Positions 6,513 through 49,747 of a DNA stretch of 64,000 bases are shown here, piece by piece. Made by a program: the position numbers and the translations under genes. Under the pieces are notes generated by a model. It was not told where the DNA came from and searched no databases. It worked only from the letters and a program-made list of their open reading frames with translations. Source of the stretch: Actinomycetes bacterium (lineage in GTDB: Bacteria > Actinomycetota > Acidimicrobiia > Acidimicrobiales > JAMCPL01); NCBI GenBank assembly GCA_021841005.1, contig JAKBVZ010000020.1, forward strand, positions 20,752 to 84,751, given 5' to 3'. The first letter of the stretch is position 1, and each line of letters starts with the position of its first letter.

Positions 6513-6822
6513 ATACTCCTTATCACAATTAGGTCATTCCCGCCAGCCGGTACATACCCGCAACTCCGATCCCTACAACCCACCTCACTCGGCTTGTTCC
6601 GCATGTACGTGGAGTGCGACATACATAGCATGTTGCCTGCCACCGGCAAGCCGCGTGACCCTACTTTCTGACATAGTATCAGGTGTCTTGGCGATAGACA
6701 TTGAATAATATACAAAAACAGCTATCTCGTGAAAGACATTATCCAATCGTCTACCTAGTGCCTGAACCCTGGTATATGTTGCGCATTATACTCTACCGGA
6801 GCGCTCCACTAGTATTATTGAT

Positions 6823-21431: not shown

Positions 21432-21674
21432 TTATCCCTCGATCACATCACCGAGCAGATCGACCTCCACCCCTACAGACCTCAACCACGAAAGCGCAGA
21501 CTCCACGTTGTCCGGCTCCCCTCCGATCTCGCATAGGATCCAGCCCTCTCCATCATCCACATTGGCCTTTCTAATGTTTGGCTCGACATCGTGATCCTTC
21601 ACCAAGCGAGCCAGAACCGGCTCGCGTACCAATTGCTCAGGGAATATCAGCTTCACCCTGACTTTCACCGACAC
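21432..21674 (-). CDS. Stand-alone NIL-domain protein
   Basis: The 80-aa protein (KVRVKLIFPEQLVREPVLARLVKDHDVEPNIRKANVDDGEGWILCEIGG) matches the NIL domain found at the C-terminus of MetN-type ATPases. Confidence 0.7.
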   Translation of the reverse strand: MSVKVRVKLIFPEQLVREPVLARLVKDHDVEPNIRKANVDDGEGWILCEIGGEPDNVESALSWLRSVGVEVDLLGDVIEG

Positions 21675-21683
21675 TCACCTTCC

Positions 21684-22481
21684 TCACCACATGCCTCCGC
21701 CTGTCCGGTAGCCCTCGAGATCCAGCACAACATACTTGAAGCCTACTCCATACACGGCATGCAATATCTCCATCCGCATGTCCATAGCTGCCGGCAGCTC
21801 ATCCGCACCAATCTCCAATCGAGCTATTTCCCCATGGTGCCTCACGCGTACCTGCCTGAGCCCGAGTTTCCTGAGCGCATTTTCAGCACGTGCAACTTGA
21901 GAGAGCATGCCTACTTCTATAGGAGTACCGTGAGGAATACGTGACGACAGGCAAGCCATTGAGGGCTTGTCCCATATATCCAGGGACAACGATCCAGCTA
22001 TCGACCGGACTTCCTCTTTGCCTATACCGGCTCGCACGAAGGGGAACACCGCTCCGCGTTGCTGCGCAGCTGCTTGGCCTGGCCGGACGTCACTGAGGTC
22101 GTCCAGATTGACTCCGAGCACCACGGTGGCACCCTCATCTTCTGCTATGGGTTCCAATGCGTCCATCAGGGCGTTCTTGCAGTGATAGCATCGATCGGAT
22201 CCATTAGATACGTAGTCCGGGTTATCGAACTCTTCCGTATGTACTTCCCGCAGGCGTAACCCCCACTGCCGAGCATATTTCCTGCATGCCTCCAACTCCG
22301 TTGCCGCCAACGAGGCCGACACTGCCGTCACGCAAAGGGCACCCGGCGGTCCCAGAACGCTGTTAGCCACCCATGCCAGCAGTCCTGAATCCACCCCACC
22401 TGAAAAAGCCACCACCACCTTGCCAAGATCATGCAACTCTTTCTCCAGCGCTGCAAGCTTGACCGGTGGTCGGCTGGACAT
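21684..22481 (-). CDS. LarE-like PP-loop ATP-dependent sulfur transferase (TIGR00268-like)
   Basis: PP-loop VVAFSGGVDSG. Cys motifs RCYHCK and MACLSSR. I moved the start to the ATG at 22481, directly after the hemQ stop (ORF track gives 22649). Confidence 0.7.
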   Translation of the reverse strand: MSSRPPVKLAALEKELHDLGKVVVAFSGGVDSGLLAWVANSVLGPPGALCVTAVSASLAATELEACRKYARQWGLRLREVHTEEFDNPDYVSNGSDRCYHCKNALMDALEPIAEDEGATVVLGVNLDDLSDVRPGQAAAQQRGAVFPFVRAGIGKEEVRSIAGSLSLDIWDKPSMACLSSRIPHGTPIEVGMLSQVARAENALRKLGLRQVRVRHHGEIARLEIGADELPAAMDMRMEILHAVYGVGFKYVVLDLEGYRTGGGMW

Positions 22482-22486
22482 TGCCA

Positions 22487-24839
<2,353 letters not shown>

Positions 24840-25048: not shown

Positions 25049-25355
25049 ACTGTTCCGCGCCTCAATACTCAATATATGTGCACTGCGCAATGCATCGACC
25101 CGTTTTCATATCGACACGTTGCCACCACCACCAAATTGACATGAAATTGCAATGCAACGGTAAAGAGTTTGTCATATTTGTGGGTTATAGTATGTTTGGT
25201 AGCAAGTAGGCGCTCATCGGGCAACCTGAACGGCCGTTCGAATCTGAAAGGGCGTTCGTGCGTCTATTGCCAAGGATGCGATTCATATACGCAACCGCTA
25301 CAAGTGGCGTGCACTCTCCGGGAGGAGTGCCTTGACCGGACAGGAGAGTGAAACC

Positions 25356-28300
25356 ATGTCATTTGGAAAGAGAGGCCGCAGATTAAGGGTATTGTCGGGT
25401 ATTTTGCCGGGCGTGCTACCGGTAGCAATTGTGGCAGCCGTATTGCTGCCTCTCCTGGCCACAGCAGCAAATGCAGCTACAGTTCCCCAGGTGGTAAACG
25501 TTTCAGCAAGCGTGGCTGGTGGTTCTGGCTCAGCTGGAGGATGGGAGGTATCCAACGCCGCTCAACTGCCCGTCAGCGCTCTTACCGCAATATCCTGCCC
25601 TGCCACTGGTGATTGCGTGGCTGTGGGCCAGGGATTGTCCGGCAATACGATATCCGCCGTGACCTCGAATGGCGGGCTGGATTGGACAGTGCAGCAACTG
25701 CCTAGTGAGGTAGGCTCGCTTACCGGGATATCCTGCCCGACTACGCAAGCGTGCTTTGCTGTGGGGCAGGCATCCGAACCTTACAACAGCTTCACCCCAG
25801 GTGGAATCGTCGTATCCACCAGTAATGGTGGCTCCAGCTGGACTATCCAGGACATCCCCGGAGGAGTATCGTCGCTGACCGGCATCTCGTGTGCAGCTTC
25901 ATCCGATTGCTGGGTAGTGGGAAGCAACACTGCGTCTGTACCGGTAATGCTCAGTACCACAAACGGTGGTACCACTTGGACCGCTACTACACCCCCGGCT
26001 CCCGCCGGTAATCTTGATGTAATATCCTGTCCTGCTACAACTCACTGCGTAGCCACCGGTGCCAGTGGCGCAGTAGTAGTCACATCTGACGGGGGGAAGA
26101 CGTGGACAGTCCCACCCGTACCAAACGACACCACCAATCTTGATTCCGTATCATGCGCGGATGTCATGTTCTGCATGACCGTGAATATCCTTCCTTACAG
26201 CGGCAACTTCCGGGTCCGGAACGAGTCATCCACAGGTTTAGTAAGCTCATTTCAAACCTCCGCAGGCTCGGCTACAGCCCAGTCTGTATGGGTCACCACC
26301 GACGGAGGAACCACCTGGACAGTAGAGCAGGTGCCATCCAATATTATTCAACTGGCAGGTGTCTCATGCGCGCCTGCGTCCTCCAGCACCATCACAGGAA
26401 CAGCCTCTACCGTCTACACACCTTGTACTGCAATAGGTACGGAAGTCACCTCCGGCACACCCGATAATCCAATTACAGAAAACACGGTCGTACTCGCGTC
26501 CACTGACGGCGGATCGACCTGGAATACGGAGAACACTTCACCATCGACGGTTAATCTATTGGCGATATCGTGCAACGATATCACTGATTGCGTAGCCGTA
26601 GGTGCTGAGTCTCCCAACACCTCAACGACCTCACTGCCCACCCTGCTTGGAGGGTCCGAAACCAGTATAGCGTTGTCCACCACAGACGGAGGCAACGCAT
26701 GGAATCTTACGAACGTCCCTACTGCCAGCCAGGTACTCCTGAATGTGAACTGTGCCAGCACATCTGACTGCGTGGCGGTCGGCTCCACCACGGGAACCGG
26801 TGGAAGCACTGCAGCTCTCGCACTTTCCACCTCCAACGGGGGACAGACTTGGAGGCCGGAAAATCCACCTGCCAATGCGCCATTGCTGGATGTCTCCTGC
26901 CCGACTACGACTCAGTGTACAGCGGTGGGCGGTAATCCTATAGGGGGAATCTTCGGCCCCGGACCTGCAACCATTGTAAGCACTTCCAATGGAGGATCTT
27001 CGTGGACATCCGGGACTATACCGAACAATTTGTTGAGCATCCTCGGGGTCTCTTGCGCTTCTGTCAATTTCTGCGTATCCGTGGGTGCAGGGTTCCCTCC
27101 CAATGCCAAATCCGGGTATTCCTTGTCCAGCATAGTAGGTGTCATCCTTGTCAGCACCGATGGTGGCACCTCATGGAAAGAGCCGGCTTCATATCCAGGC
27201 GATGTGCTTTCCTCCGTGTCATGTCCTACAGTGTCCACGTGCTACGCATCAGGCAGTTCCATTCTCGGATCTGAGGGATTCAATGGGTTACCGGGAATGG
27301 TGGTGAAGACCATCAACGGTGGAAGCACGTGGTCGGTACTGCAGCCTGCCGGCAAGGACACCCCCGAACTGAACGGCATTGCATGTTCCTCTGCCACCCA
27401 GTGCGTCGTATCCGGAGGATCGTTACTGAACGGCCTTGAGGGCGGGAGCGGTGTAAGTGGCGGCTTGGGGTTCACCACCACAAACGGTGGAGCAAGCTGG
27501 AATAAATCCGCCTTCCCTTCAGGATCGCAGCCAGTCATGCGAATTTCCTGCGCAAATACTCAGGACTGCTGGGCAGCCAGTGGTGAATTATTCTCACCTT
27601 CTTCCGGAGGCATTCTGGCCAGCACCGATGGAGGAGTACAGTGGACCGAGCAGGCACTGCCCGTACAGCCTATGTCCATGTTCGGGGTATCGTGTCCCTC
27701 GACCACCGGCTGCTACGCTGCCGGATTGACGCCAAGCCAAAGCATTCTGCTCTCGACAACGACCGGAGGCTGGCTGGTGCCTGCTATTAGCTCTGTCAGC
27801 CCTAGCGACGGTTTCTCCTACGGTGGAACTACAGTGACCCTGTCAGGTACCGGATTCGTTCAAGGTCACACGGTGGTCAATTTCGGCACTGCGCCAAGTC
27901 CATCCGTAGATGTCCAGTCATCTTCTGAGCTGACCGCGGTGGCACCACCGGGAAGCGGAACTGTCAATGTCACGGTTCAAACTCCTGGCGGGACGACCAC
28001 CCCTACCAGTCATACCACCTTCAGTTACCAGCCTGCCGGCAGCTACACCTCTAGGGCAGCTTCCCCTTTCACGCCGGTCACTCCTTACCGTATAGCGGAC
28101 ACAAGACTGGGCTCCGGTGAGCCCTACGCGGGCCAGACCCTTGACACTGGCAGCGTGCTGAGCGTCAAGATCGGAGGTACCCAGCCTCAAGGGAGTGGCA
28201 ACGGTATACCCATCAGCGCCACAGCGGCAGTGATCAACGTAACCGCCGTCAACGCCGCTTCTCCAGGCTACCTGACCGTATGGCCAGCCGGGTATTCCAA

Positions 28301-29333
28301 GAGCACCTCCTCCGCGGTCAACTATTCCGGTACTGCGCCGGTCGCCAATCTGGTGACCGTTCCAATTGGACTGAACGGCCAGGTAAATGTATATGCCTCC
28401 AGCGGGCCGGTGGACGTGGTAATGGACGCGGAAGGCTGGTACGGCCCTGCAGGTACCAGCGGCTTTACCGCGATTAGTCCTTATCGTATAGCGGATACAA
28501 GGCCAGACTCCGGTGAGCCTTACGCGGGACAGACCCTTGCTCCCCATCGTGTGCTCACCATAAAGACCACTGGAACCGGCGCTACGCCCGCCAACGGCGG
28601 TGCCGGCGTTCCGATCACTGCCACTGCCGTAGACTTGAACGTAACCGCCGTCAACGCCGCTTCTCCAGGCTACCTGACCGTATGGCCAGCCGGCCAGGCA
28701 CGCCCGTTGGCATCCACAGTCAACTTCTCAGCACCTCCTATAATCTCGCCGGTGATACTGGATGGAAACCCGGCAACCTCATCGGGTCCCTTGCCTGTAT
28801 CGAACTCGGTTGCAGTAGCAGTGTCCTCCTCTGGTGAAATAAGCATTTATAACGGTTCGCAGGGAAGTATCAACGTAGTGGTGGACGTACAAGGCTGGTT
28901 CTCCACCCCAGACAGTACGAGCGCCTCTGGAAGTTCTCCTTTAAAGTTCACGCCAGTCAATCCCTACCGTATAGCGGACACGAGACCGGGTTCCGATGAG
29001 CCCTACGCGGGACAGACTCTTGCTCCCCATGGTGTGCTCACCATAAAAGCAGGTGGGACAGCCCCTCTGGGCAATGCCAACGGCGGTACCGGCATTCCGA
29101 TCACTGCCACCGCTGTAGTACTGAACGTTACCGTTGCCACCTCCGATGCATCAGGCTACCTGACCGTATGGCCGGCAGGCCAGGCACGCCCGTTGGCATC
29201 CAATACCAACTATGGAAAGGACACGATAATTGCAAGCCAAGTGGTCGTCCCTCTCGGATCAGGAGACAGCATCTCGATTTACAACTCAGCCGGCTACACC
29301 AACGTAGTGGTGGACGTGGAAGGCTGGTTCTGA
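25356..29333 (+). CDS. Large secreted protein: 14 BNR/Ycf48-like propeller units + IPT/TIG domain + three copies of an uncharacterised PYRIADTR domain
   Basis: Signal peptide MSFGKRGRRLRVLSGILPGVLPVAIVAAVLLPLLATAANA. There are 14 units, each pairing [IV]SC-x5-C-x-[AV]xG with S-x-[DN]-G-G-x-x-W. An IPT-like segment follows (SVSPSDGFSYGGTTVTLSGTGF). Then come three 128-161 aa repeats. I moved the start to the ATG at 25356, after GGAGAG. Confidence 0.8.
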   Translation: MSFGKRGRRLRVLSGILPGVLPVAIVAAVLLPLLATAANAATVPQVVNVSASVAGGSGSAGGWEVSNAAQLPVSALTAISCPATGDCVAVGQGLSGNTISAVTSNGGLDWTVQQLPSEVGSLTGISCPTTQACFAVGQASEPYNSFTPGGIVVSTSNGGSSWTIQDIPGGVSSLTGISCAASSDCWVVGSNTASVPVMLSTTNGGTTWTATTPPAPAGNLDVISCPATTHCVATGASGAVVVTSDGGKTWTVPPVPNDTTNLDSVSCADVMFCMTVNILPYSGNFRVRNESSTGLVSSFQTSAGSATAQSVWVTTDGGTTWTVEQVPSNIIQLAGVSCAPASSSTITGTASTVYTPCTAIGTEVTSGTPDNPITENTVVLASTDGGSTWNTENTSPSTVNLLAISCNDITDCVAVGAESPNTSTTSLPTLLGGSETSIALSTTDGGNAWNLTNVPTASQVLLNVNCASTSDCVAVGSTTGTGGSTAALALSTSNGGQTWRPENPPANAPLLDVSCPTTTQCTAVGGNPIGGIFGPGPATIVSTSNGGSSWTSGTIPNNLLSILGVSCASVNFCVSVGAGFPPNAKSGYSLSSIVGVILVSTDGGTSWKEPASYPGDVLSSVSCPTVSTCYASGSSILGSEGFNGLPGMVVKTINGGSTWSVLQPAGKDTPELNGIACSSATQCVVSGGSLLNGLEGGSGVSGGLGFTTTNGGASWNKSAFPSGSQPVMRISCANTQDCWAASGELFSPSSGGILASTDGGVQWTEQALPVQPMSMFGVSCPSTTGCYAAGLTPSQSILLSTTTGGWLVPAISSVSPSDGFSYGGTTVTLSGTGFVQGHTVVNFGTAPSPSVDVQSSSELTAVAPPGSGTVNVTVQTPGGTTTPTSHTTFSYQPAGSYTSRAASPFTPVTPYRIADTRLGSGEPYAGQTLDTGSVLSVKIGGTQPQGSGNGIPISATAAVINVTAVNAASPGYLTVWPAGYSKSTSSAVNYSGTAPVANLVTVPIGLNGQVNVYASSGPVDVVMDAEGWYGPAGTSGFTAISPYRIADTRPDSGEPYAGQTLAPHRVLTIKTTGTGATPANGGAGVPITATAVDLNVTAVNAASPGYLTVWPAGQARPLASTVNFSAPPIISPVILDGNPATSSGPLPVSNSVAVAVSSSGEISIYNGSQGSINVVVDVQGWFSTPDSTSASGSSPLKFTPVNPYRIADTRPGSDEPYAGQTLAPHGVLTIKAGGTAPLGNANGGTGIPITATAVVLNVTVATSDASGYLTVWPAGQARPLASNTNYGKDTIIASQVVVPLGSGDSISIYNSAGYTNVVVDVEGWF

Positions 29334-29335
29334 GA

Positions 29336-29611
29336 TCAGCCGCCGGCGACAGCAGGAACGACCGAGAGGGTCTGCCCATCCGTGACAGGTGTGTCCAGGC
29401 CATCGAGAAAACGGACATCCTCATCGGCTAGGAACACATTGACAAACCTCCGCAGACTGCCGGACTCGTCAAACAATCTCTCACCGATACCTGGGTACTT
29501 GGCATCAAGTTCCCTCAGCGTGTCTCCGACAGTCGCTCCACTGATACTGACCTCACCCAGTCCATCGGTGAGTTCCCGTAGCTGCGATGGTATCCTTACT
29601 GTAACGCTCAT
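29336..29611 (-). CDS. MoaD/ThiS-family sulfur-carrier protein (MetO/CysO-like), C-terminal GG
   Basis: 91-aa beta-grasp-like protein ending in AVAGG. It lies downstream of the threonine-synthase-like gene. Start is the ATG at 29611, preceded by GAGGAG (ORF track extends to 29665 through the repeat). Confidence 0.75.
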   Translation of the reverse strand: MSVTVRIPSQLRELTDGLGEVSISGATVGDTLRELDAKYPGIGERLFDESGSLRRFVNVFLADEDVRFLDGLDTPVTDGQTLSVVPAVAGG

Positions 29612-29764
29612 CTTCTGTGCTCCTCTTCTAGGTCTGCTGCGGCCACTATGCCGCAACTCGTGCACCGTGTGTTGCTCATCTTCTGTGCTCCTCTTCTAGG
29701 TCTGCTGCGGCCACTATGCCGCAACTCGTGCACCGTGTGTCGCTCATCTTCTGTGCTCCTCTTC
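29606..29764. repeat. MIRU-like element, locus D: 2.3 tandem copies of a 68-bp unit between metM-like and metO-like genes
   Basis: The 23-bp junction GCTCATCTTCTGTGCTCCTCTTC is present at 29606, 29674 and 29742. It is the complement of SD plus ATGAGC. The copies are separated by two 45-bp cores containing CTGCGGCCACTATGCCGCAA. Minus-strand mini-ORFs lie at 29676..29747 and 29608..29679. Confidence 0.95.
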
Positions 29765-29806
29765 CCGTGAGTCATACTACCAGTGCCTGTGTGTGGAGAC
29801 CATCCG

Positions 29807-31051
29807 TCATACACCGGAAATGCGGCCGGCCATTGCCTCGGCAAAGGCATCCATCCTGGCTGCGATGGTAACTGTTGGGTGGACAGAGTCGGTTAGAGCC
29901 TCGACGGTCTTGAGACCGTGACCGGTCACGAAGATGACCACCTTCTCCTCCGGCTTGATCACCCCTTCCGACACCAGCTTGGCGAGTGAAGCCACGGTCA
30001 CTCCACCTGCCGTTTCAGCAAATATACCTTCCGTTCTCGCCAGTAGCTTGATACCTTCGATTATCTCGCCGTCCGTCACGCTGGCAAACGAGCCTCCCGT
30101 GGACCGGACCGTATCGAGAGCGTACCAGCCATCAGCAGGGTTCCCTATGGCGAGCGACTTAGCGATTGTATCGGGTTTTACAGGTCTTATGACATCCTTG
30201 CCTGCCCGGAACGCATCGGCTACCGGAGAACATCCAAGCGCCTGTGCGCCTGATATCCGAACCGCTGGTTCCTCGGCAAGCAGCCCCACGGTATACAGCT
30301 CCTTGAACCCCTTTGCGATCTTCGTCAGCTGGCTGCCGGAAGCCACAGGAACCACCACGTGATCGGGAGTGGTCCATCCCATCTGCTCCGCCACTTCGAA
30401 CGCCAGCGTCTTGGAACCTTCCGCGTAGTAGGGACGCAGGTTCACATTCACAAAGGCCCAATCGTCGTGCTCACTGGTCAACTCCGCACACAACCTGTTC
30501 ACGTCATCATAAGTCCCTTCCACCGCAACCAGATGTCCGCCATATACCGCAGTCGTAATCACCTTTGCGACCTCCAGGTCATGCGGTATGAACACCAGTG
30601 ACTCCACCCCTCCTCGGGCCGCGTGCGCCGCTACGGCATTGGCGAGATTCCCTGTAGATGCGCAAGCCACCACTTTGAAACCCAGCTCACGAGCTTTGGC
30701 GAGTGAGACAGATACCACCCTGTCCTTAAAAGAACCGGTAGGGTTGGCCGTATCGTTCTTTACCCAGAGCGATTGCAATCCCAACTCGGAGCCGAGCCTA
30801 CCTGCCCGCACAAGAGGAGTGAAACCGGTTCCCATGGACAGATCGTCATTTCCCAGCACCGGAAGGAGTAGTCCGTATCTCCAGATACTACGCGGGCCTG
30901 CCTCTATGGACTCCCGGCTGATCCCCTCCTTAATACAATCGTAGTCGTAGTCCACTTCGAGCGGCCCGAAACAAAAGTCGCATACATGCAGCGCCTCCGC
31001 GGGATAGAGCCGTCCGCACTCCCTGCACTTCAGACCATTTACGCAATTCAC
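29807..31051 (-). CDS. Threonine-synthase-family PLP enzyme with N-terminal Cys4 zinc ribbon (MetM-like candidate homocysteine synthase)
   Basis: PLP lysine motif TGSFKDR. N-terminal CRECG...CDFC. Start is GTG, 5 nt after GAGGAGG. A SAM riboswitch lies upstream and a sulfur-carrier gene downstream. Confidence 0.8.
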   Translation of the reverse strand: MNCVNGLKCRECGRLYPAEALHVCDFCFGPLEVDYDYDCIKEGISRESIEAGPRSIWRYGLLLPVLGNDDLSMGTGFTPLVRAGRLGSELGLQSLWVKNDTANPTGSFKDRVVSVSLAKARELGFKVVACASTGNLANAVAAHAARGGVESLVFIPHDLEVAKVITTAVYGGHLVAVEGTYDDVNRLCAELTSEHDDWAFVNVNLRPYYAEGSKTLAFEVAEQMGWTTPDHVVVPVASGSQLTKIAKGFKELYTVGLLAEEPAVRISGAQALGCSPVADAFRAGKDVIRPVKPDTIAKSLAIGNPADGWYALDTVRSTGGSFASVTDGEIIEGIKLLARTEGIFAETAGGVTVASLAKLVSEGVIKPEEKVVIFVTGHGLKTVEALTDSVHPTVTIAARMDAFAEAMAGRISGV

Positions 31052-31166
31052 AGCAACCTCCTCATCATCGGTCGGGCATTGGCACCTGGTCTACCTTCAT
31101 AAGACATCACAGGTTGCCGCGGCTTCACAGGGCCCGTCCCTCAGCCGCTCTGGATGATGACAGCTG
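31052..31166 (-). promoter_or_regulatory. SAM riboswitch of the SAM-I clan (S-box-like core, apparently no internal P4)
   Basis: The minus-strand RNA reads UCAUCAUCCAGAGCGGCUGAGGGACGGGCCCUGUGAAGCCGCGGCAACC...GGUGCCAAUGCCCGACCGAUGAUGAGGAGG. It matches the S-box conserved blocks (AGAG-GGC-GAGGGA-GGCCC-UGAA-CC-GCAACC...GGUGC-AA). The P1 3-prime strand runs into the Shine-Dalgarno sequence. Confidence 0.8.
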
Positions 31167-31241
31167 GATGGCTACTGATGATTCATCCAAATGTCAATTT
31201 AAAGTATAGCACTGCTTACAAGGAGCGATAACCAGAGCTCA

Positions 31242-32699
31242 TTGACCCAGGTCACAAGAGACTTTGCCGATGCTGAGCACGGGGAAGTCAGTTTGCGATA
31301 TGCTATTTTCACCATGCTCGATGTCGAAGTCATAGTCGCATCGAATAGGGGCCCAGTCTCATTCGCACTCGACACAAAAAATAATCCCGTAGTGGCTTCA
31401 AGCGGGGGAGGTCTTGCAGGCACTCTCAGAAGGCTCCTGATTGGCAAGGGCGCCACATGGGTAGCGTGCTCCATGGGAGAAGCGGACACCAAGGCTGCAA
31501 GCTCTGGGCTGGCCGGAGCCGGAGCCGGCGAGGGCATCAATCTTGTAATGGTAAACCTGGATCCTGGCATCTACCACATGGCCTACGATACTGTCGCCAA
31601 TTCCACCCTCTGGTTCCTGCATCATCACATGATGGATCTGTCACGTGCACCGAGATTCGGCAAACGCTGGATGGAGGCATGGAAAGGCTACAGGGATTAC
31701 AATCAAGCATTCGCTGGTGAAATTGCCCAAGTTGCCGATAACGACGCATGTGTACTTGTCCAGGATTACCACCTTGCACTTCTACCGGGCATTCTCGCTG
31801 GAATCCGTCCAGACCTTCGTTGCATCCATTTCTCACATACCCCTTTCGCTGCCCCTGATTTCTTCGGTGTGCTGCCAACCGCTGTAGGCCGGGAACTCAT
31901 CACGGCCATGAGCACGGCCAAGAATTGCGGTTTCCATACCGAAAAATGGGCTGACTCTTACCGTAGGTCATGCATCTCTACGGGAATCGATTCACCTACC
32001 ACTTTTGTCTCTTCTCTCGGAGTGGACGCTGGCCTACTGCGCGAGGAGGCTCGAAGCGCCAAGTGCTCTGAAGCCAAGTCATGGGTGGAAAATGTGGCAG
32101 ACGGGCGTAGGCTCATTGTACGGACAGACAGGATGGAGCCATCCAAGAACGTGCTGCGCGGTCTCTGGGCATTTGACGAATTGCTGGCCGAACACCCTCA
32201 GTGGATAGAGCAGGTCGTGTTCCTGGTGCTCACCTACCCTTCCCGGCAGAACCTTCCCGAGTACCTGGCATACGCTTCCGAAGTGGAGACCACCGTGGAT
32301 TACCTGAATGACAAGTGGTCGACCAAATCCTGGACTCCAGTGGTGCTCGATCTCTCGGACGACTACTACAAGTCCCTGGCCGCACTATCGCTTTACGATC
32401 TACTTATGGTCAATCCGGTGAGAGATGGCTTGAACCTGGTCGCAAAGGAGGGTCCGCTGGTCAACGAGCGCAACGGCTCACTCCTTCTCAGCCGGGAAGC
32501 AGGCACTTTCGGCGAACTCAGCCAAGCCGCCATCGCCGTCAATCCTTACGATGTGGGCGAAACCGCTACCGCTGTTCATAAGGCGTTGCTGCTCGACGAT
32601 TCTGAACGTGCATCCCGCTCAACCAAGCTGGAGGAGCTTGCATCGACACGTACACCCGAGGACTGGCTGGATGATCAGCTCTCCCAGGCCCTAGCTTGA
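31242..32699 (+). CDS. otsA: Alpha,alpha-trehalose-phosphate synthase (GT20)
   Basis: GT20 features are present (VIVASNRGPVSF, VQDYHLALLPGIL, VNPVRDGLNLVAKEG). Start uncertain. Confidence 0.9.
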   Translation: MTQVTRDFADAEHGEVSLRYAIFTMLDVEVIVASNRGPVSFALDTKNNPVVASSGGGLAGTLRRLLIGKGATWVACSMGEADTKAASSGLAGAGAGEGINLVMVNLDPGIYHMAYDTVANSTLWFLHHHMMDLSRAPRFGKRWMEAWKGYRDYNQAFAGEIAQVADNDACVLVQDYHLALLPGILAGIRPDLRCIHFSHTPFAAPDFFGVLPTAVGRELITAMSTAKNCGFHTEKWADSYRRSCISTGIDSPTTFVSSLGVDAGLLREEARSAKCSEAKSWVENVADGRRLIVRTDRMEPSKNVLRGLWAFDELLAEHPQWIEQVVFLVLTYPSRQNLPEYLAYASEVETTVDYLNDKWSTKSWTPVVLDLSDDYYKSLAALSLYDLLMVNPVRDGLNLVAKEGPLVNERNGSLLLSREAGTFGELSQAAIAVNPYDVGETATAVHKALLLDDSERASRSTKLEELASTRTPEDWLDDQLSQALA

Positions 32700-33552: not shown

Positions 33553-36500
33553 CTAAAGATGCTCCGCCGCATCACCCGCCAGGTTCCCACCCGCCAGGTT
33601 CCCGGAAACTTCCCCGCCATCTTCATCTTCATCCCTGTGCCTTCCAAGCAGCTTGCCCACCAGGCGGGCACCGTCATCAATATAGGAATAGAACACCGGG
33701 ACCACCAGCAACGAAAGTGCTGTCGAGGAGAGCAAGCCGCCGATCAGCACGGTGCCAATAGGCATTCGCTCGGAAGCCCCTACGCCGGTAAGCAAGGCAA
33801 GCGGCAGCATGGCACCGACCATAGTGGCGGTGGTCATCAAGATCGGCCTTATCCTGGTGGCCCCAGACTCCACGATCGCATCATTACGAGCATAGCCACG
33901 CTTGCGGAGCGTCTTGGTGTAATCCACCAGTAGAATCGAGTTCTTTGCCACCAAGCCCATCAGCATGATCATCGCGAGCAATGCAAATATCGACATGGAA
34001 AGCCCTGATGCCCAGAGCGCGAGCAAGGCTCCTACTGTGGCAAGGGGCACGGCGAACATCACTGAAAGTGGATCCAGGAAGGACTCGTAAAGGGCAGCAA
34101 GAAGCATGTACACGAGCAGTACTGACAATAGAAGTGCTCCTATCAGCGGTCCGAAGGCTCTTGACTGAGCCAGAGCCTCTCCCCCCACCTGCAGAGCATA
34201 TCCGGTGGGCAACCCAACGGTCTTGGCGGCGCTCATAAGAGCCGCCTCAGCAGGACCCGAGTTCCCTGAAGTGCTCGATGCGGAGACGGATACTGCATAT
34301 TCCCGATTGATCTGTACTATGCTGCCGGGCCCGGGCGCAACGCTCAAGTCGGCAACAGTGGACAGCGGCACCGTTCCGTGCCCTGTGGGTATTGGTATTG
34401 ACGAAAGCTCGGCCGGAGTGAACTTCACTCCTCCGTCCAACTGCATGACTACCGGTTCTGAAGGCGCTGTCGACGAAGTGATGAGCGGTGGCACCTTCAC
34501 TCCACCGAGAGCGGAAGCAATAGTGGAACCGATGGTGGAAGTGGTCACACCAAGGTAAGCCGCCTCAGCATGGTTTACATTGATGGCCAACTCTGGTGTA
34601 GGAGCAGGTATGTTGTTGGATACCTGAGAGACAGCTGGACTCTTTTCCGCTGCGTTGGTGATCGACGTCGCTATGCTCTCCAACTCGTTGAGGTCAGGAC
34701 CGACTATGGACACCGTGGCGGCACGAGCACCACCAGCAACAAACGGATTGCTTACATGGGCATGAGCGACCAGGCCAGGGTATTTTCGCTCCATTGCAAC
34801 GACTCGTTTCTCGTATGTCTTAATCGATGGCCGGCTGCCGCGGGGACCAAGGTCTAGGGTAATCTGTCCCAAATTGTGCCCCGTGCCTGATCCTGCACTA
34901 TATCCTGCCGAGACAAATACATTCGTTACGCCCTGCAAACCCTGCAACCTCTTGGAAAATGCCGCGAGGGTGGTCTGATCGGTCGAGAGCGGAGTACCTG
35001 GCGGTAGGGTGGCCTTCACCGTTACTACCCCGTTGTCCTCAGGGGGGACAAAAGTTGTGGGCACCACGCCGGAAGTAACGATGAGAACACTTGCAACCGC
35101 CGACACGATTCCCACGCTGAGCACTATAATCCGATGTCTGAGGGCCCACCTCACCACGTGCCGGTACCACTCACGCATCCAGTCGAACCCGGCATCGAAG
35201 CGCATACCTATTCTCGTGGACAACGTACCACTCTTCTGCTCCTTCCCAAGCCAGCGAGAGGCAAGCATGGGGGTAAGCGTGAACGACACCAGGAGGGAAA
35301 AGAGGGTAGCCGCTACAATGGTAAGACCGAACTCCCTGAAGAGCTGACCCACATTGCCCGAAACAAACGCCACCGGGGCATACACAACCACATCGGTCAA
35401 GGTAATAGCTACGGCCGCGGCCCCTATCTCCATCCGACCATCGACCGCAGCATCTGCAGGCGCCTTGCCCATGGCGCGATGACGATTGATATTCTCAAGT
35501 ACTACGATAGAATCATCAACCAGTATTCCAATGAGCAGTGACAGGGCCATCAGTGAAATAAGATCCAGGCTGAAATGGAGGAAATACATTACAAGGAAAG
35601 TGGATATCAGCGATACGGGTATGGCAATCATGACGATTGCCGTATTGGCCAACCTGTGCAGGAACACCAGCAGTATCAGTGCAGCTATGAGTATGCCAAG
35701 GAACAGATCCATCTCCACGTTGGACAGGGCACCTCTCACGTAGTTGGTCACATCGCCTATAATCGTGCTTGTAACCCCCGGAGGAAGTTTGCTCTGCAGC
35801 CCTGCCAGCGCTGATCGTATTGCCGTATCCACTTGCAAGGAGTTAGCGGTGGACGATGCGCTCACGACAAGACCGACCGCCGGACTACCATTCAAGGTGG
35901 CGACCGACTGCTTCTGGGCAAGACCCTGCGTGACACTGGCCACGTTGCCGAGAAGTACATTCCCGCCCGAGCGGGAAGCCACTGGTATGGAGGCAAGCTG
36001 CGCCACCGAGTTGTACCCTCCATGGACTCGAGCAAGTAGCTCGTGTTCTCCAACCACGGTTACGCCACCGGTGACTGATGTATTCTGCGCATGTAGAGCA
36101 CCTGCCACCTCGCTCATCGATACGCCATAAGCGCTGAGCGCAGTGCTCGAGACGTTGACGGTCACCACTTGAGGCTGCCCGCCGACAACAGTAACCTGGG
36201 AAACCCCTGGAATCTCCTGCAATGAAGGCGCCACCAGAGTGGATGCCAGGTTGAACAGCTGCGAGGACGCCAGCGGGCCCGAGAGGGCAATGTTCATCAT
36301 GGGCAACGCGTTTGGATTGGCTTTCAGTATCGAGGGTGGGCTTGCTGTGGATGGAAGTGACCTCGCCAACTTCTGCAGGGCAAGTGACACGCTTGCCGCC
36401 TGCTGATCAATATTGGTCCCTCCGGTAAACTCCATGGAAACCGATGAACGCCCTGGTGAAGAAGTTCCCACCATCGTAACGATACCGGACTCTGAAGAAA

Positions 36501-36783
36501 GTGCCTTCTCTATAGGGTCGGTAATGGCACTGGCCACTGTTGCCGCATTGGTTCCTGGATCTGATACCGATACGCGCAAGTAAGGAAAATTGACGTTCGG
36601 CAGGCGCCTGACCGGCAATCTTGTAAATGCCACCAAGCCAAAGAGCACGAAGAAGCCAAGCACCATGATGATGGTGACCGGTCGCCGCACCGACAGCGAG
36701 GTCAGATTAAAACGCGTATGCGTAACGGCGTTTCTCTCCTGTCCCTTCTTCCCGCTGGTCTCCCCGCCGGTCTGGACTCCCAC
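33553..36783 (-). CDS. RND efflux transporter, AcrB/HAE-type
   Basis: 1076-aa, 12-TM protein with two large loops. AcrB-like N-terminus (SVRRPVTIIMV) and conserved TM4 region GILVDDSIVVLENI. Confidence 0.9.
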   Translation of the reverse strand: MGVQTGGETSGKKGQERNAVTHTRFNLTSLSVRRPVTIIMVLGFFVLFGLVAFTRLPVRRLPNVNFPYLRVSVSDPGTNAATVASAITDPIEKALSSESGIVTMVGTSSPGRSSVSMEFTGGTNIDQQAASVSLALQKLARSLPSTASPPSILKANPNALPMMNIALSGPLASSQLFNLASTLVAPSLQEIPGVSQVTVVGGQPQVVTVNVSSTALSAYGVSMSEVAGALHAQNTSVTGGVTVVGEHELLARVHGGYNSVAQLASIPVASRSGGNVLLGNVASVTQGLAQKQSVATLNGSPAVGLVVSASSTANSLQVDTAIRSALAGLQSKLPPGVTSTIIGDVTNYVRGALSNVEMDLFLGILIAALILLVFLHRLANTAIVMIAIPVSLISTFLVMYFLHFSLDLISLMALSLLIGILVDDSIVVLENINRHRAMGKAPADAAVDGRMEIGAAAVAITLTDVVVYAPVAFVSGNVGQLFREFGLTIVAATLFSLLVSFTLTPMLASRWLGKEQKSGTLSTRIGMRFDAGFDWMREWYRHVVRWALRHRIIVLSVGIVSAVASVLIVTSGVVPTTFVPPEDNGVVTVKATLPPGTPLSTDQTTLAAFSKRLQGLQGVTNVFVSAGYSAGSGTGHNLGQITLDLGPRGSRPSIKTYEKRVVAMERKYPGLVAHAHVSNPFVAGGARAATVSIVGPDLNELESIATSITNAAEKSPAVSQVSNNIPAPTPELAINVNHAEAAYLGVTTSTIGSTIASALGGVKVPPLITSSTAPSEPVVMQLDGGVKFTPAELSSIPIPTGHGTVPLSTVADLSVAPGPGSIVQINREYAVSVSASSTSGNSGPAEAALMSAAKTVGLPTGYALQVGGEALAQSRAFGPLIGALLLSVLLVYMLLAALYESFLDPLSVMFAVPLATVGALLALWASGLSMSIFALLAMIMLMGLVAKNSILLVDYTKTLRKRGYARNDAIVESGATRIRPILMTTATMVGAMLPLALLTGVGASERMPIGTVLIGGLLSSTALSLLVVPVFYSYIDDGARLVGKLLGRHRDEDEDGGEVSGNLAGGNLAGDAAEHL

Positions 36784-41061: not shown

Positions 41062-41874
41062 TCACATATGCACTGCAAGGGTATTCACCAGCAAGTTCAG
41101 CATCTTTGCCACACTGGCCGGTCCAGCCAACAGGATATCGGCGCGCTCCAAAAGATCTCCTGGAATCTCAGGACTGTTCACCGCCACCCGCAATACCACA
41201 CTTCCAGATCGCGACAGTACGTCCAATGCATCGTATGCCTTGAGGTCACCGGCATCGTCACCAATGTAGCAGATCCTCTTCCGGCCATCCACCAGTTTCG
41301 TCACCGTGCTTCCCTTGTCGACATTGACAGGCACCCTAACTTCTATCGCCATCCTGCCCGGCTGCAGTTCCAATCCGTATACGTCAGCAAGCCGCACCGC
41401 AATCTGAAGCGCCTCTTGGGCCAACTCGGGAGCATTCCGCCAGTGCAACGCAAACCCAAGTCCCTTGTCCTCCAAGAATACACCGGCAGGCCGATCTTTC
41501 CACGCTTCGTCATGAGCGAGCCTGATCCGCTCTTCCCAACGGTTGGCGCCCGGCTCCATAAGCCTCTTGCCATCTACAAGCATCTCGAGCCCGTACATTC
41601 CGGCCAATATGACATCGTTGCCGGCACCGGCCAGCCTGTCCTCCAGGAAATCAAGCGGCCGACCGGAAATCACCGCTACGGTTGCCAGATGGTGAGCCAA
41701 GATGCCGAGCAACTCTGGAATACCAGACACGGCTACCGCTCTGCCTGGTTCAGGTACTATATCAGCCACAGTGCCGTCGAAATCAAGAAGGAGCGCTGTC
41801 GATTGGCCGTCAGCAGCCAGCCAGCCGGCCAGCTGCTCCTCTCCGGTTGGACATCCCTCCGGTACGCTACACAT
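41062..41874 (-). CDS. otsB: Trehalose-6-phosphate phosphatase (HAD family)
   Basis: HAD motif I LLDFDGTVADIV, motif with ISGRP, and C-terminal YIGDDAGD. Confidence 0.8.
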   Translation of the reverse strand: MCSVPEGCPTGEEQLAGWLAADGQSTALLLDFDGTVADIVPEPGRAVAVSGIPELLGILAHHLATVAVISGRPLDFLEDRLAGAGNDVILAGMYGLEMLVDGKRLMEPGANRWEERIRLAHDEAWKDRPAGVFLEDKGLGFALHWRNAPELAQEALQIAVRLADVYGLELQPGRMAIEVRVPVNVDKGSTVTKLVDGRKRICYIGDDAGDLKAYDALDVLSRSGSVVLRVAVNSPEIPGDLLERADILLAGPASVAKMLNLLVNTLAVHM

Positions 41875-48097: not shown

Positions 48098-48550
48098 CTA
48101 TTCCTCTGCCATGACCTCCAGCGTGACCTCAGAATCCACTCCCGGATAGAGATTCAATGTGACCACGTGGACACCCAGTGATTTTATGGGAGCAGCAATG
48201 TGGACTGACTTCCGGTCGACTTCCACGCCGGTTTGGATACGCACAGAATCGCTCACATCAGCAGCCGTAACAGACCCGAACAGACGTCCCTCGGGTCCTG
48301 CTTTGGCATAGACCTTGATAGTGGCTTCTTCCAAAATCGTCCTGATGGATTGAGCGGATTCCATGTCTCTGGCCTCTTTGAGATCCCGGGCACGGCGCAT
48401 GGCTTCAGCCTGTTTCGTCATTTTCTCCGTAGCGGCAAGTGCACTTCTCGAAGGCAAAAGCTTGTTACGAGCATAACCATCTGCAACTTCGACAATGTCG
48501 CCTTTCCTACCAAGATCATTGACATCCGTCCGTAGCAGCACCCTCATCAC
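48098..48550 (-). CDS. rplI: 50S ribosomal protein L9
   Basis: [32 protein letters not shown] is typical of L9. Its start overlaps the rpsR stop (GTGATG). Confidence 0.95.
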
Positions 48551-49239
48551 TGAATGTCTCCCCCGGTACCGCCCTCATCTTCCCTGTCACCGGAAGCCAC
48601 CGTACCACCCGGATCTGTAATGTCCGAGTCGGTCACGGCGCCCGCCGGAGCGCCCGGACCAGCTGGATCCGACCCGCCCGTCGGCACCTCTGAGCTACCT
48701 GAATCCAACGGGCCACCTGGAATCTCCGAGCCATCCGTACTCCCGGCAACATCCAGCCTTTCCGTAGAACCCCTACCGGTCTTGCCGGCACCACCTCCCC
48801 TGCTGGGATTATCCGTCCTGCCCCGTGGTCTTGCTCTGGACCCTTCGGAATCCCGTATCGGGCGGTCGGTATGATTCATGTGCTCACCCGTGACAGCTCT
48901 CTCGCCATCTCCTGGGAGGATATCACCCATATCCAGCGAGTAGGAAGACTGCCTGCGAGTTCCCGTTCTTTCAGCGCTAACGCGCTGGGCATATGGTAAC
49001 AATGCTACTTCACGCGCAGTCTTGACAGCTATGGCTATATCATGCTGATGCTGAGTGCAGTTACCCGTGACGCGCCTTGCCTTGATCTTGCCCCGCTCGC
49101 TAACATATCTCTTCAAGAAATCCACATCCTTGTAATCCACCCACTCTATATCATCAATACAGAGCAAGCAGGGCTTTTTTCTGTACTTACGCCCTGTGTC
49201 TTTCGTAACTTTGCGATTTTTCATACCATTTCTTCCCAT
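48547..49239 (-). CDS. rpsR: 30S ribosomal protein S18 with about 145-aa disordered C-terminal extension
   Basis: S18 core ([63 protein letters not shown]) is followed by a Gly/Asp/Ser/Pro-rich tail. I chose the start at the ATG at 49239 (GAGGAG 10 nt upstream), just after the ssb stop. Confidence 0.85.
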
Positions 49240-49240
49240 A

Positions 49241-49747
49241 TCAGAAAGGCTCCTCACTTTCATCGTAATGCACGGCACCCGGCTCGTCTTCCGCATAGTG
49301 CTTGGATGACGGTGCACCGTATGGACTACGACGAGAAAATCCTGGCGCAGGCGTACCGGTCTCCCCAGCCCCGCTTGCTTCCCTGCGCTCATTCTTTACA
49401 ATCTGTGCAGTAGCCCACCGCAAACTGGGACCCACTTCATCCGCCGTGATCTCGACCTTGTAACGATGCTCGCCGTCTGGAGTCTCCCAGGACCTTTGAT
49501 CAAGCCGACCCGTTACGATCACGCGAGTACCCTTTGACAATGACTCACTGGCATTTTCCGCCATCTCACGCCAGCATATCACATCAAAAAACGATACGTT
49601 CTCTTCCCAATCCTGTGTCTGCCGGTTCTGCCAGCGCCTGTTGACAGCCAACCCGAAAGCCGCTTTGGCAATCCCACTGGGGGTATAGCTCAGTTCCGGA
49701 TCTCTGGTCACATTACCAATCAATACAACCGTATTACCATTTGACAT
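49241..49747 (-). CDS. ssb: Single-stranded DNA-binding protein
   Basis: OB-fold N-terminus ([21 protein letters not shown]) and an acidic C-terminal tip (DESEEPF). Confidence 0.95.

Follow-up and report, generated by a model that had tools for sequence, protein, structure and literature searches.

A SAM-I riboswitch, a threonine synthase homologue and a sulfur carrier probably form a MetM/MetO homocysteine route in an uncultured Acidimicrobiales bacterium

We analysed a 64,000-nt stretch of DNA, hereafter the window, which covers positions 20,752-84,751 of contig JAKBVZ010000020.1 (assembly GCA_021841005.1) from an uncultured Acidimicrobiales bacterium of the class Acidimicrobiia. All window coordinates below refer to this stretch. 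The subject of this report is a two-gene cluster on the minus strand, metM-metO. Read from 31300 towards 29250, it consists of a -10-like box, a SAM-I (S-box) aptamer of the type that senses S-adenosylmethionine (SAM), a GGAGG Shine-Dalgarno (SD) sequence, a GTG start codon, the metM open reading frame (ORF), a spacer of 195 nt, and the metO ORF. The metM gene (29807..31051, minus strand, GTG start at 31051) encodes a 414-aa pyridoxal 5'-phosphate (PLP) enzyme of the ThrC family, the predicted homocysteine synthase that would depend on the MetO thiocarboxylate. The metO gene (29336..29611, minus strand) encodes a 91-aa sulfur carrier of the MoaD/ThiS/CysO type with a free C-terminal Gly-Gly. 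An initial annotation, made from the sequence alone, had singled out a riboswitch, a PLP enzyme with four N-terminal cysteines and a carrier ending in GG, and all three elements were found where it had placed them, on the minus strand.

The metM product belongs to the fold-type II PLP family (PF00291 PALP, E = 8.5e-76) and conserves the catalytic Lys109 within an SFKDR motif (codon 30727..30725). It scores 294.3 bits against TIGR00260, the NCBIfam thrC equivalog, which has a cut-off of 167.1 bits, and it matches ThrC structures in the PDB down to E = 4e-58, so its earlier assignment to the ThrC family holds. An N-terminal Cys4 zinc ribbon of the form CxxC...CxxC (C9, C12, C24 and C27; 30971..31027, minus strand) had likewise been proposed; the segment matches PF05810, a small zinc-ribbon family, and the four cysteines are invariant in an alignment with 13 relatives. 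Assignment as a cysteate synthase was rejected on the basis of a TIGR03844 score of 77.5 bits against a cut-off of 324.9. An AlphaFold model computed on the 13-sequence alignment reached a predicted local distance difference test score (pLDDT) of 42.5 and was unusable. The metO product matches PF02597 (ThiS, E = 3e-14) and ends in ...PAVAGG, in agreement with its earlier description as MoaD/ThiS-like, and its best solved relative is Mycobacterium tuberculosis CysO (3dwg_C, E = 1.6e-23), with Amycolatopsis CysO (4n6e_B) also matched. Across related loci the MetO C-termini are mostly GG, with some extended to GGC, GGH, GGV, GGAFIM or GGADSVT (C-terminal variation occurs at L003:4435-4713, L004:2061-2339, L016:2300-2593, L021:1450-1734 and L026:1043-1318). 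Extended C-termini would need proteolytic trimming, which is consistent with the reported need for Mec in Streptomyces albulus, and window MetO should need none because it already ends in Gly-Gly.

The aptamer (31062..31160, minus strand) matches Rfam RF00162 over the full model (positions 1-108) at 72.2 bits, above the gathering threshold of 44.4 and with E = 6e-15, which bears out the S-box-type SAM riboswitch of the initial annotation. Upstream of it, TATACT at 31203..31208 (minus strand) was read by eye as a possible -10 box of the operon promoter. Close relatives carry TATACT or TATAAT at the same position in the alignment, and a sigma-70 consensus scan did not call the site. The metM SD sequence GGAGG (31057..31061, minus strand) begins 1 nt after the aptamer and abuts the 3' strand of the P1 stem. 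The aptamer ends 10 nt before the metM start codon and therefore leaves no space for a terminator. No terminator-like site was found 3' of the window aptamer, the sole consensus match in the scan lying inside the aptamer itself. At 15 of 18 related loci the distance from aptamer to start codon is at most about 13 nt.

In the minimum free energy (MFE) fold of the leader, the strand CAGUAGCCAUCC just 5' of P1 (31166..31177, minus strand) is the partner of GGAGGUUGCUG, which comprises the SD sequence and the spacer to the start codon. The resulting extension of 11 bp, in which CAGUAGCC-A-UCC (31177-31166) pairs with GGAGGUUGCUG, is stacked on P1 and hides the SD sequence, so that the upstream strand is a candidate anti-SD element. 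The relative L003 keeps this helix with one compensatory change from C-G to U-A in an alignment of four sequences that have the extension, which lends weak covariation support to the pairing. Loci L008-L015 achieve a similar geometry with an SD sequence, GAGGAG, that is itself part of the P1 3' strand. SD occlusion was assigned to 15 of the 18 loci, and the Acidimicrobiia and Nonomuraea are of this type. Two loci have a terminator-like hairpin followed by a U-run instead, L022 from Dormibacterota (5922-5983) and L016 from an Actinomycetota metagenome-assembled genome (MAG) (955-1059). Because the same pairing of aptamer and gene carries two different expression platforms, we argue that SAM control of this gene is real. 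To judge from its geometry, the window riboswitch most likely acts on translation as an OFF switch: abundant SAM would stabilise P1, and P1 together with the stacked extension would bury GGAGG and shut off metM translation.

Whether the enzyme groups with threonine synthases was addressed by comparison with its relatives. A pattern scan with one genome per species returned at least 80 loci, which divided into 19 loci of one clade (L008-L026), hereafter the MetM clade, and 61 ThrC loci. In the phmmer comparison the clade loci are 49-75% identical to the window protein at 430-680 bits, the other matches listed reach at most 41% identity and 294 bits, and a gap lies between the two groups. We then compared 88 proteins in a neighbour-joining (NJ) tree with 100 bootstraps. 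Of these, 24 were clade sequences, including those of Nonomuraea, Microcystis (thrC_1, taken from a paper supplement) and two archaea, and 64 were others, including Thermus thermophilus ThrC rebuilt from a PDB alignment. The MetM clade was split from all ThrCs in 100/100 NJ bootstraps, which puts the window protein outside canonical ThrC in the phylogenetic comparison that the initial annotation had suggested. Within the tree set the window protein matches clade members at 50-94% identity and everything outside the clade at 41% or less; it shares 60.6% identity with Microcystis thrC_1, 56% with Nonomuraea MetM and 34-40% with canonical ThrCs. The Microcystis thrC_1 sequence (listed for strain NIES-2519 in a proteomics table of PMC12172450 and cut off at about 400 aa) is inside the clade, with 50-62% identity to the members and no more than 42% to any non-clade ThrC. 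We take it to be the enzyme studied in that paper, although the paper's enzyme is from PCC7806. There was no Streptomyces locus among the scan matches listed, a protein search seeded with L019 recovered only Acidimicrobiales-type proteins and no Streptomyces MetM, and the PLSDB plasmid collection yielded the Nonomuraea metM and no Streptomyces metM.

A residue signature accompanies this division. The canonical ThrCs that we tabulated (Thermus, Nonomuraea, Nitrospirota, Paenibacillus, methanogens and haloarchaea) carry T88-F134-S155-N157-R160-Q164-N188-N191-A240-R242 in Thermus numbering. At the same ten positions the clade has L-Y-N-R-Y-S-S-(Q/L)-S-A, with an A at position 188 in one case as the single exception, and it has a one-residue insertion in the N-S-x-N-P-x-R loop. 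The window protein does not have the canonical ten-residue pattern; its residues are L136, Y181, N204, R206, Y209, S213, S238, Q241, S299 and A301. Among the 22 representative sequences tabulated, from bacteria to archaea, the ten positions split the two groups in every case. The zinc ribbon does not behave in this way: its four cysteines occur in 22 of 24 clade members and also in 44 of 64 non-clade ThrCs. The idea that the ribbon is a MetM-specific docking domain for the carrier was rejected accordingly, since it is common to most archaeal-type ThrCs.

Gene context was compared across the same loci. Among the matches listed, a MetO homologue lies directly downstream at 17 of the 19 clade loci versus 0 of the 61 ThrC loci. 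SAM-I lies directly upstream at 13 of the 19 clade loci listed, and in addition at L001, L003, L005 and in Nonomuraea; the six clade loci that lack it are two from archaea, two from Chloroflexi and two that are cut near the 5' end. An nhmmer aptamer profile found no match in 657 kb of ThrC loci, and an Rfam search of 12 canonical thrC loci found no SAM-I. Four relatives' genomes from three phyla carry a clade gene together with a canonical thrC. One is Nonomuraea gerenzanensis, which has otsA / riboswitch-metM-metO ... groEL at 11.81 Mb and a separate thrC-thrB at 2.50 Mb; its PLSDB entry NZ_LT559118.1, named 'plasmid I' and 11.85 Mb long, is evidently the chromosome, as it holds thrC-thrB, groEL and metM-metO. 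Another is Chloroflexi L020, where hom-thrC is found a few kb from metM-metO. The remaining two are the Nitrospirota loci L021 (166-7379) and L026 (11-6854), where metM, metO, a NIL-domain gene, thrC, HomK, aspartokinase and a LeuA/CimA-like gene run in one direction, HomK being the phosphoglycerate-mutase-like homoserine kinase TIGR02535 (560 bits). The canonical thrC genes in L089, L020 and L021 have a hom / thrB (or homK) context, and the Nitrospirota and Chloroflexi neighbours are genes for making O-phosphohomoserine, the predicted shared substrate. In the Thermoproteota locus L025, a ThiF/MoeB-type E1 gene follows right after metM-metO. Within the window we scanned 33 ORFs against Pfam, namely most large ORFs up to 10 kb on either side and size-compatible ORFs elsewhere, with the 1076-aa ORF at 33553..36783 and several small ORFs lying outside the scan. 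None of the 33 is hom, thrB or homK.

Public names do not reflect this division. As the initial annotation had predicted, wherever public sources name the window protein or its relatives, the name is 'threonine synthase'. The cause of this systematic label lies in TIGR00260, which scores the MetM clade at 270-294 bits, far over its 167-bit cut-off; Nonomuraea MetM (L088:5965-7203), at 270 bits, exceeds it as the window protein does. TIGR00260 is unable to tell MetM from ThrC, and no MetM-specific profile was matched in the NCBIfam comparison of MetM-clade proteins.

The initial annotation had pointed to a Streptomyces route that makes homocysteine with MetM and MetO, and the existence of this route is confirmed by two sources (PMC12172450; bioRxiv 10.1101/2024.10.14.618325), which summarise Hasebe et al. 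2024 (AEM 90:e01247-24). In these summaries MetM is an often mis-annotated ThrC homologue that uses O-phosphohomoserine and MetO, and S. albulus metM is described as having a SAM riboswitch upstream (PMC12172450). The same source gives 51.6% identity between S. albulus MetM and a homologue from Microcystis whose gene lies beside a metO-like one (PMC12172450). In Streptomyces coelicolor, SCO4293 ('thrC') and SCO4294 fall into a sulfate-assimilation expression cluster (PMC2267785) and adjoin groEL2, SCO4296 (PMC2631018). The clade split, the signature, the linkage to carrier and SAM-I, and the coexistence with thrC in relatives together support the MetM/MetO-type function that the initial annotation had proposed. 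We put the probability that the locus encodes a working MetM/MetO route to homocysteine, with SAM as its OFF signal, at roughly 85%. The chemistry that we propose is taken from the published Streptomyces work. MetM would bind O-phospho-L-homoserine on PLP and eliminate phosphate, and would then accept MetO, through its C-terminal thiocarboxylate, at C-gamma, whereas canonical ThrC would add water at C-beta. Release of the adduct would yield homocysteine, and subsequent methylation would yield methionine. To regenerate the MetO thiocarboxylate (MetO-COSH), an activating enzyme whose gene lies elsewhere would be needed; the published precedent is of the MoeZ type, and a LarE-like gene described below is a candidate.

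ThrC uses the phosphate that it holds as a base for the addition of water at C-beta. The signature residues T88, S155, R160 and N188 are ones that we take to form the pocket for the substrate or product phosphate in Thermus ThrC, roles reportedly described in work by Omi in 2003 and Murakawa in 2011. If they do, then the remodelled pocket would fit an enzyme that releases phosphate and admits a protein thiocarboxylate at C-gamma. Several points weigh against the MetM/MetO assignment. The window protein exceeds the NCBIfam thrC 'equivalog' cut-off, and the Pfam scan of 33 window ORFs turned up neither a ThiF/MoeZ-type (E1-like) nor a JAMM-type gene, in accordance with the earlier remark that no such gene is adjacent. 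The leader fold is no more stable than shuffled sequences (z = -0.85), and the model of SD occlusion draws on geometry and four sequences. The link to the characterised enzyme is indirect: S. albulus MetM would fall inside the clade because it is 51.6% identical to the Microcystis homologue, whose maximum to non-clade ThrCs is 42%. In vitro, the Microcystis clade member was a weak threonine synthase and a threonine deaminase, and with Na2S it gave no clear homocysteine, the carrier thiocarboxylate not having been tried in that work (PMC12172450).

These points bear on three other explanations. The locus could encode a genuine archaeal-type ThrC with a zinc ribbon, SAM control serving to keep threonine and methionine synthesis in balance at their O-phosphohomoserine branch point and the small protein being unrelated or regulatory. 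The TIGR00260 score (294 bits against 167), the agreement of every naming public source on threonine synthase, and the sharing of the ribbon with 44 of 64 non-clade ThrCs are as this explanation would have it, but the replacement of all ten positions of an otherwise invariant ThrC pattern is not, nor is the coexistence of the clade with canonical thrC in four genomes of three phyla, nor the linkage of the carrier gene to the clade and to none of the 61 ThrC loci listed. Plant threonine synthase is activated by SAM. If the window enzyme were a threonine synthase, then its SAM OFF switch would do the opposite and cut threonine synthesis when methionine is abundant, and we consider this explanation very improbable.

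We hold it to be just as poorly placed that the pair makes some other sulfur compound, for example cysteine from O-phosphoserine in a CysM/CysO-like manner, or that the carrier feeds another thiolation, for example one by the LarE-like protein. The enzyme is ThrC-type, with no CysM or CysK model among the matches listed, even though the nearest solved relatives of the carrier are CysO proteins (3dwg_C and 4n6e_B). SAM riboswitches mainly govern methionine and SAM genes, which also counts against such a function. A LarE-like sulfurtransferase does recur nearby, and the grouping of SCO4293/4294 with sulfate-assimilation genes would suit any sulfur amino acid, but the Nitrospirota and Chloroflexi contexts consist of aspartate-pathway genes for O-phosphohomoserine (aspartokinase, hom, HomK and thrC), and the published Streptomyces genetics and biochemistry, so far as the two sources summarise them, favour homocysteine (PMC12172450; bioRxiv 10.1101/2024.10.14.618325). 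Finally, the enzyme could be a bifunctional threonine synthase/threonine deaminase of the kind reported from Microcystis, with no role in methionine synthesis in vivo. That clade member combined deaminase with weak threonine synthase activity and gave no rise in methionine on induction (PMC12172450), and thrC_1, taken as the same enzyme, shows 60.6% identity with the window protein. The Microcystis study, however, supplied Na2S and not a carrier thiocarboxylate, and its gene has no SAM riboswitch (PMC12172450), whereas the window enzyme is flanked by a SAM-I riboswitch and a carrier gene, both conserved across the clade. We give this last explanation hardly any weight.

The window differs from most relatives in the junction between its two genes. 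In at least 12 relatives the metO start overlaps the metM stop (ATGA or GTGA) and metM and metO are therefore expected to be translationally coupled, whereas the window genes are separated by the 195-nt spacer with tandem mini-ORFs. This spacer contains a 68-nt tandem unit in 2.4 copies (29605..29764, minus strand; Tandem Repeats Finder, 97% matches), which the initial annotation had not mentioned. Each full unit comprises an SD sequence GAGGAG, an ATG, a 23-codon ORF and an 8-bp hairpin, and each repeats metO's own SD sequence and ATGAGC. The mini-ORFs (29747..29676 and 29679..29608, minus strand) encode the peptide MS(D/N)TRCTSCGIVAAADLEEEHRR; the TGA of a mini-ORF overlaps the next ATG as ATGA, and the last mini-ORF overlaps the metO ATG. 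Assemblies with 100%-identical MetM have one or two mini-ORFs each, a difference that may be real variation or assembler collapse, and a strain diverged by 6% in nucleotides has one. The unit is limited to strains with MetM at least 99% identical, and relatives at 94% and 88% MetM identity have unrelated spacers with no mini-ORF. Between strains, the mini-ORF shows 2 synonymous versus 5 non-synonymous codon changes at 12.5% nucleotide divergence, and metM shows 70 synonymous versus 4 non-synonymous at 6%. Profile searches returned no family match for the mini-ORF, the 32-nt core of the unit has no other occurrence in the window, and the RNA fold of the spacer is not significantly more stable than shuffles (z = -1.68). 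A conserved micropeptide or a precursor of a ribosomally synthesised and post-translationally modified peptide (RiPP) was rejected, as the mini-ORF has no family match, is absent at 94% and 88% identity, shows no purifying selection and has a unique core. By these comparisons the tandem unit is a young duplication of the metO translation-initiation region and not a conserved peptide gene, and the duplication may give metO independent and multiplied ribosome entry in the window lineage. About 30 nt upstream of the first spacer SD sequence lies a -10-like TAGTAT (29774-29779, minus strand), in the place of which L005 has TAATAT and L001 has TAATATAAT. This site may be an internal promoter that frees metO from riboswitch control.

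Two further genes on the metM strand may take part in the pathway. After groEL2 and a HemQ-like gene, about 7 kb downstream, lies a gene for a LarE-family PP-loop ATPase (21684..22484, minus strand; TIGR00268 at 287.6 bits, cut-off 150; PDB LarE 5udq, E = 1e-36), tightly packed with a gene for a stand-alone NIL-domain protein of 79 aa (21432..21674, minus strand; PF09383, E = 1.7e-17). The LarE-like protein has SGGVDS and a CYHC that forms, with a third Cys, a CXXC-C motif, the mark of the catalytic [4Fe-4S] type of LarE known for example from Thermotoga maritima (PMC9283937). It is like that type in its PP-loop SGGxDS and CXXC-C motifs and its equivalog-level score, and unlike LarE systems in pairing with a stand-alone NIL, in recurring near metM-metO and in that no larA, larB or larC was seen in the window. 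Four loci of Acidimicrobiia type, L011, L012, L100 and L101, share the order metM-metO-groEL2-hemQ-larE-NIL. In a set of metagenome contigs (L102-L181) this order is present in 13 of the 16 that extend more than 6 kb upstream from NIL, and larE adjoins NIL in 46 of the 48 that extend more than 1 kb upstream. Recurrence among Acidimicrobiia-type genomes could be inherited synteny, but more than that is argued by the presence of larE or NIL in metM clusters of other lineages. In L016, from another Actinomycetota lineage, riboswitch, metM, metO and a larE-like gene (2634-3542, E = 9e-61) are contiguous; in the Nitrospirota, NIL lies between metO and thrC (L021, 1793-2041; L026, 1397-1633); and in Chloroflexi L018 metM is followed by NIL (6388-6630) with no metO. 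Among the matches listed, all 61 canonical thrC loci lack a NIL gene, and 2 of the 61 have a LarE-like gene.

The LarE family adenylates a carboxylate on the way to a thiocarboxylate (PMC9283937), and the DUF39 route to homocysteine, which is unrelated, depends on NIL/ferredoxin proteins (PMC5764234). These two precedents make the LarE-like and NIL proteins candidates for MetO charging, sulfur withdrawal or methionine sensing. The LarE-like protein may adenylate the C-terminal glycine of MetO and convert it to the thiocarboxylate, replacing an E1-type MoeZ, or it may take sulfur from MetO-COSH by analogy with TtuA, which draws on TtuB. The NIL protein may be a partner that binds methionine or homocysteine. 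That both proteins contribute to this homocysteine route, in the Acidimicrobiia and in some further phyla, is a tentative suggestion from gene neighbourhood, which we judge more likely wrong than right. A universal requirement for NIL was rejected, since Nonomuraea has metM-metO and the plasmid collection that holds its chromosome contains no NIL homologue. A role for NIL as a second GG-type carrier was rejected as well, its C-terminus being GDV(V/I)E(S/G) and not GG.

The wider neighbourhood is shared with distant actinobacteria. In the window, groEL2 lies downstream of metM-metO at 24812..23190, and an otsA-like trehalose-6-phosphate synthase gene (31242-32699, plus strand) is divergent from the riboswitch; a trehalose phosphatase gene (41062-41874, minus strand) follows 9 kb beyond the latter. 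The otsA / metM-metO / groEL2 neighbourhood appears old, because it is also present in Nonomuraea, of the class Actinomycetes. The metM-metO-groEL2 order itself was found in the window, L001, L003, L100, L101 and Nonomuraea; in the four numbered loci groEL2 comes after metO either directly or one gene later, and in L005, a strain at 99% identity, extra FMN_bind and ApbE genes stand between metO and groEL2. Between metO and groEL2 the window holds a gene on the plus strand (25332-29333), convergent with metO and with 2 nt between the stop codons, for a secreted-looking protein of 1333 aa with many STDGG.TW (BNR/Ycf48-like) repeats, a TIG domain and three C-terminal repeats. In the Chloroflexi MAG L020, a T-box leader (104 bits, L020:7116-7542) lies directly after metO, followed by a small ORF and a gene for a family-5 solute-binding protein. 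Elsewhere in the window, the ribosomal protein S18 domain of a 280-aa ORF (48547-49389, minus strand) covers residues 82-131 only; the ORF was probably called too long, unless the protein carries an unusual extension.

Since the core pathway was published in 2024, the present locus is an identification and not a discovery. Its value lies first in the label, as on the MetM/MetO reading 'threonine synthase' is wrong in all the named database entries that we found. Under that label, metabolic reconstructions of Acidimicrobiia would show a gap in methionine synthesis and perhaps a spurious threonine route. Acidimicrobium ferrooxidans was listed as having none of the homocysteine routes then known (Price et al. 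2018), and MetM/MetO probably explains homocysteine synthesis in the Acidimicrobiia. Members of the MetM clade also occur in Chloroflexi, Nitrospirota, Dormibacterota, Acidobacteria, cyanobacteria and two archaeal phyla, and the ten-position signature, the carrier gene and the riboswitch together provide a discriminator for the re-annotation of MetM versus ThrC. The LarE-like/NIL pair suggests where the sulfur-charging step might be encoded, and LarE-like charging of MetO, if true, would represent a novel charging mechanism for a ubiquitin-like sulfur carrier.

Among known systems, the window locus is most directly comparable to MetM/MetO of S. albulus, with which it shares a ThrC homologue, an adjoining gene for a MoaD/ThiS-type carrier and an upstream SAM riboswitch. 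It differs in that its carrier ends in a free Gly-Gly, whereas S. albulus MetO reportedly needs Mec for maturation, and in that its host belongs to the class Acidimicrobiia. The metM-metO-groEL2 neighbourhood is a further likeness to actinomycetes, observed in Nonomuraea and inferred from the literature for S. coelicolor SCO4293-4296. Canonical ThrCs of known structure (T. thermophilus 1UIM, Aquifex aeolicus 2ZSJ, Bacillus subtilis 6CGQ and M. tuberculosis 2D1F) have the fold, the SFKDR motif and the predicted substrate in common with window MetM, at 34-40% identity and E = 4e-58 to 4e-49. Unlike them, the window enzyme has ten motif positions replaced and a loop longer by one residue, shows no hom/thrB context among the ORFs scanned, and has a carrier gene and a SAM riboswitch attached. 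The CysM/CysO/Mec/MoeZ system of M. tuberculosis likewise joins a fold-type II PLP enzyme to a phosphorylated hydroxy-amino acid and a protein thiocarboxylate, and there too the enzyme that activates the carrier is encoded elsewhere in the genome. The window differs from CysM/CysO in its ThrC-type enzyme, in its predicted substrate, O-phosphohomoserine and not O-phosphoserine, and in having no adjacent JAMM gene. The HcyS/MetY route of Wolinella succinogenes differs more widely, as it uses O-acetylhomoserine, a MetY-type enzyme of fold-type I, and adjacent E1 and JAMM genes. What the window locus would share with that route, which has been cited as a 'protein thiocarboxylate pathway' (PMC5764234), is the source of the homocysteine sulfur, the thiocarboxylate of a ubiquitin-like carrier.

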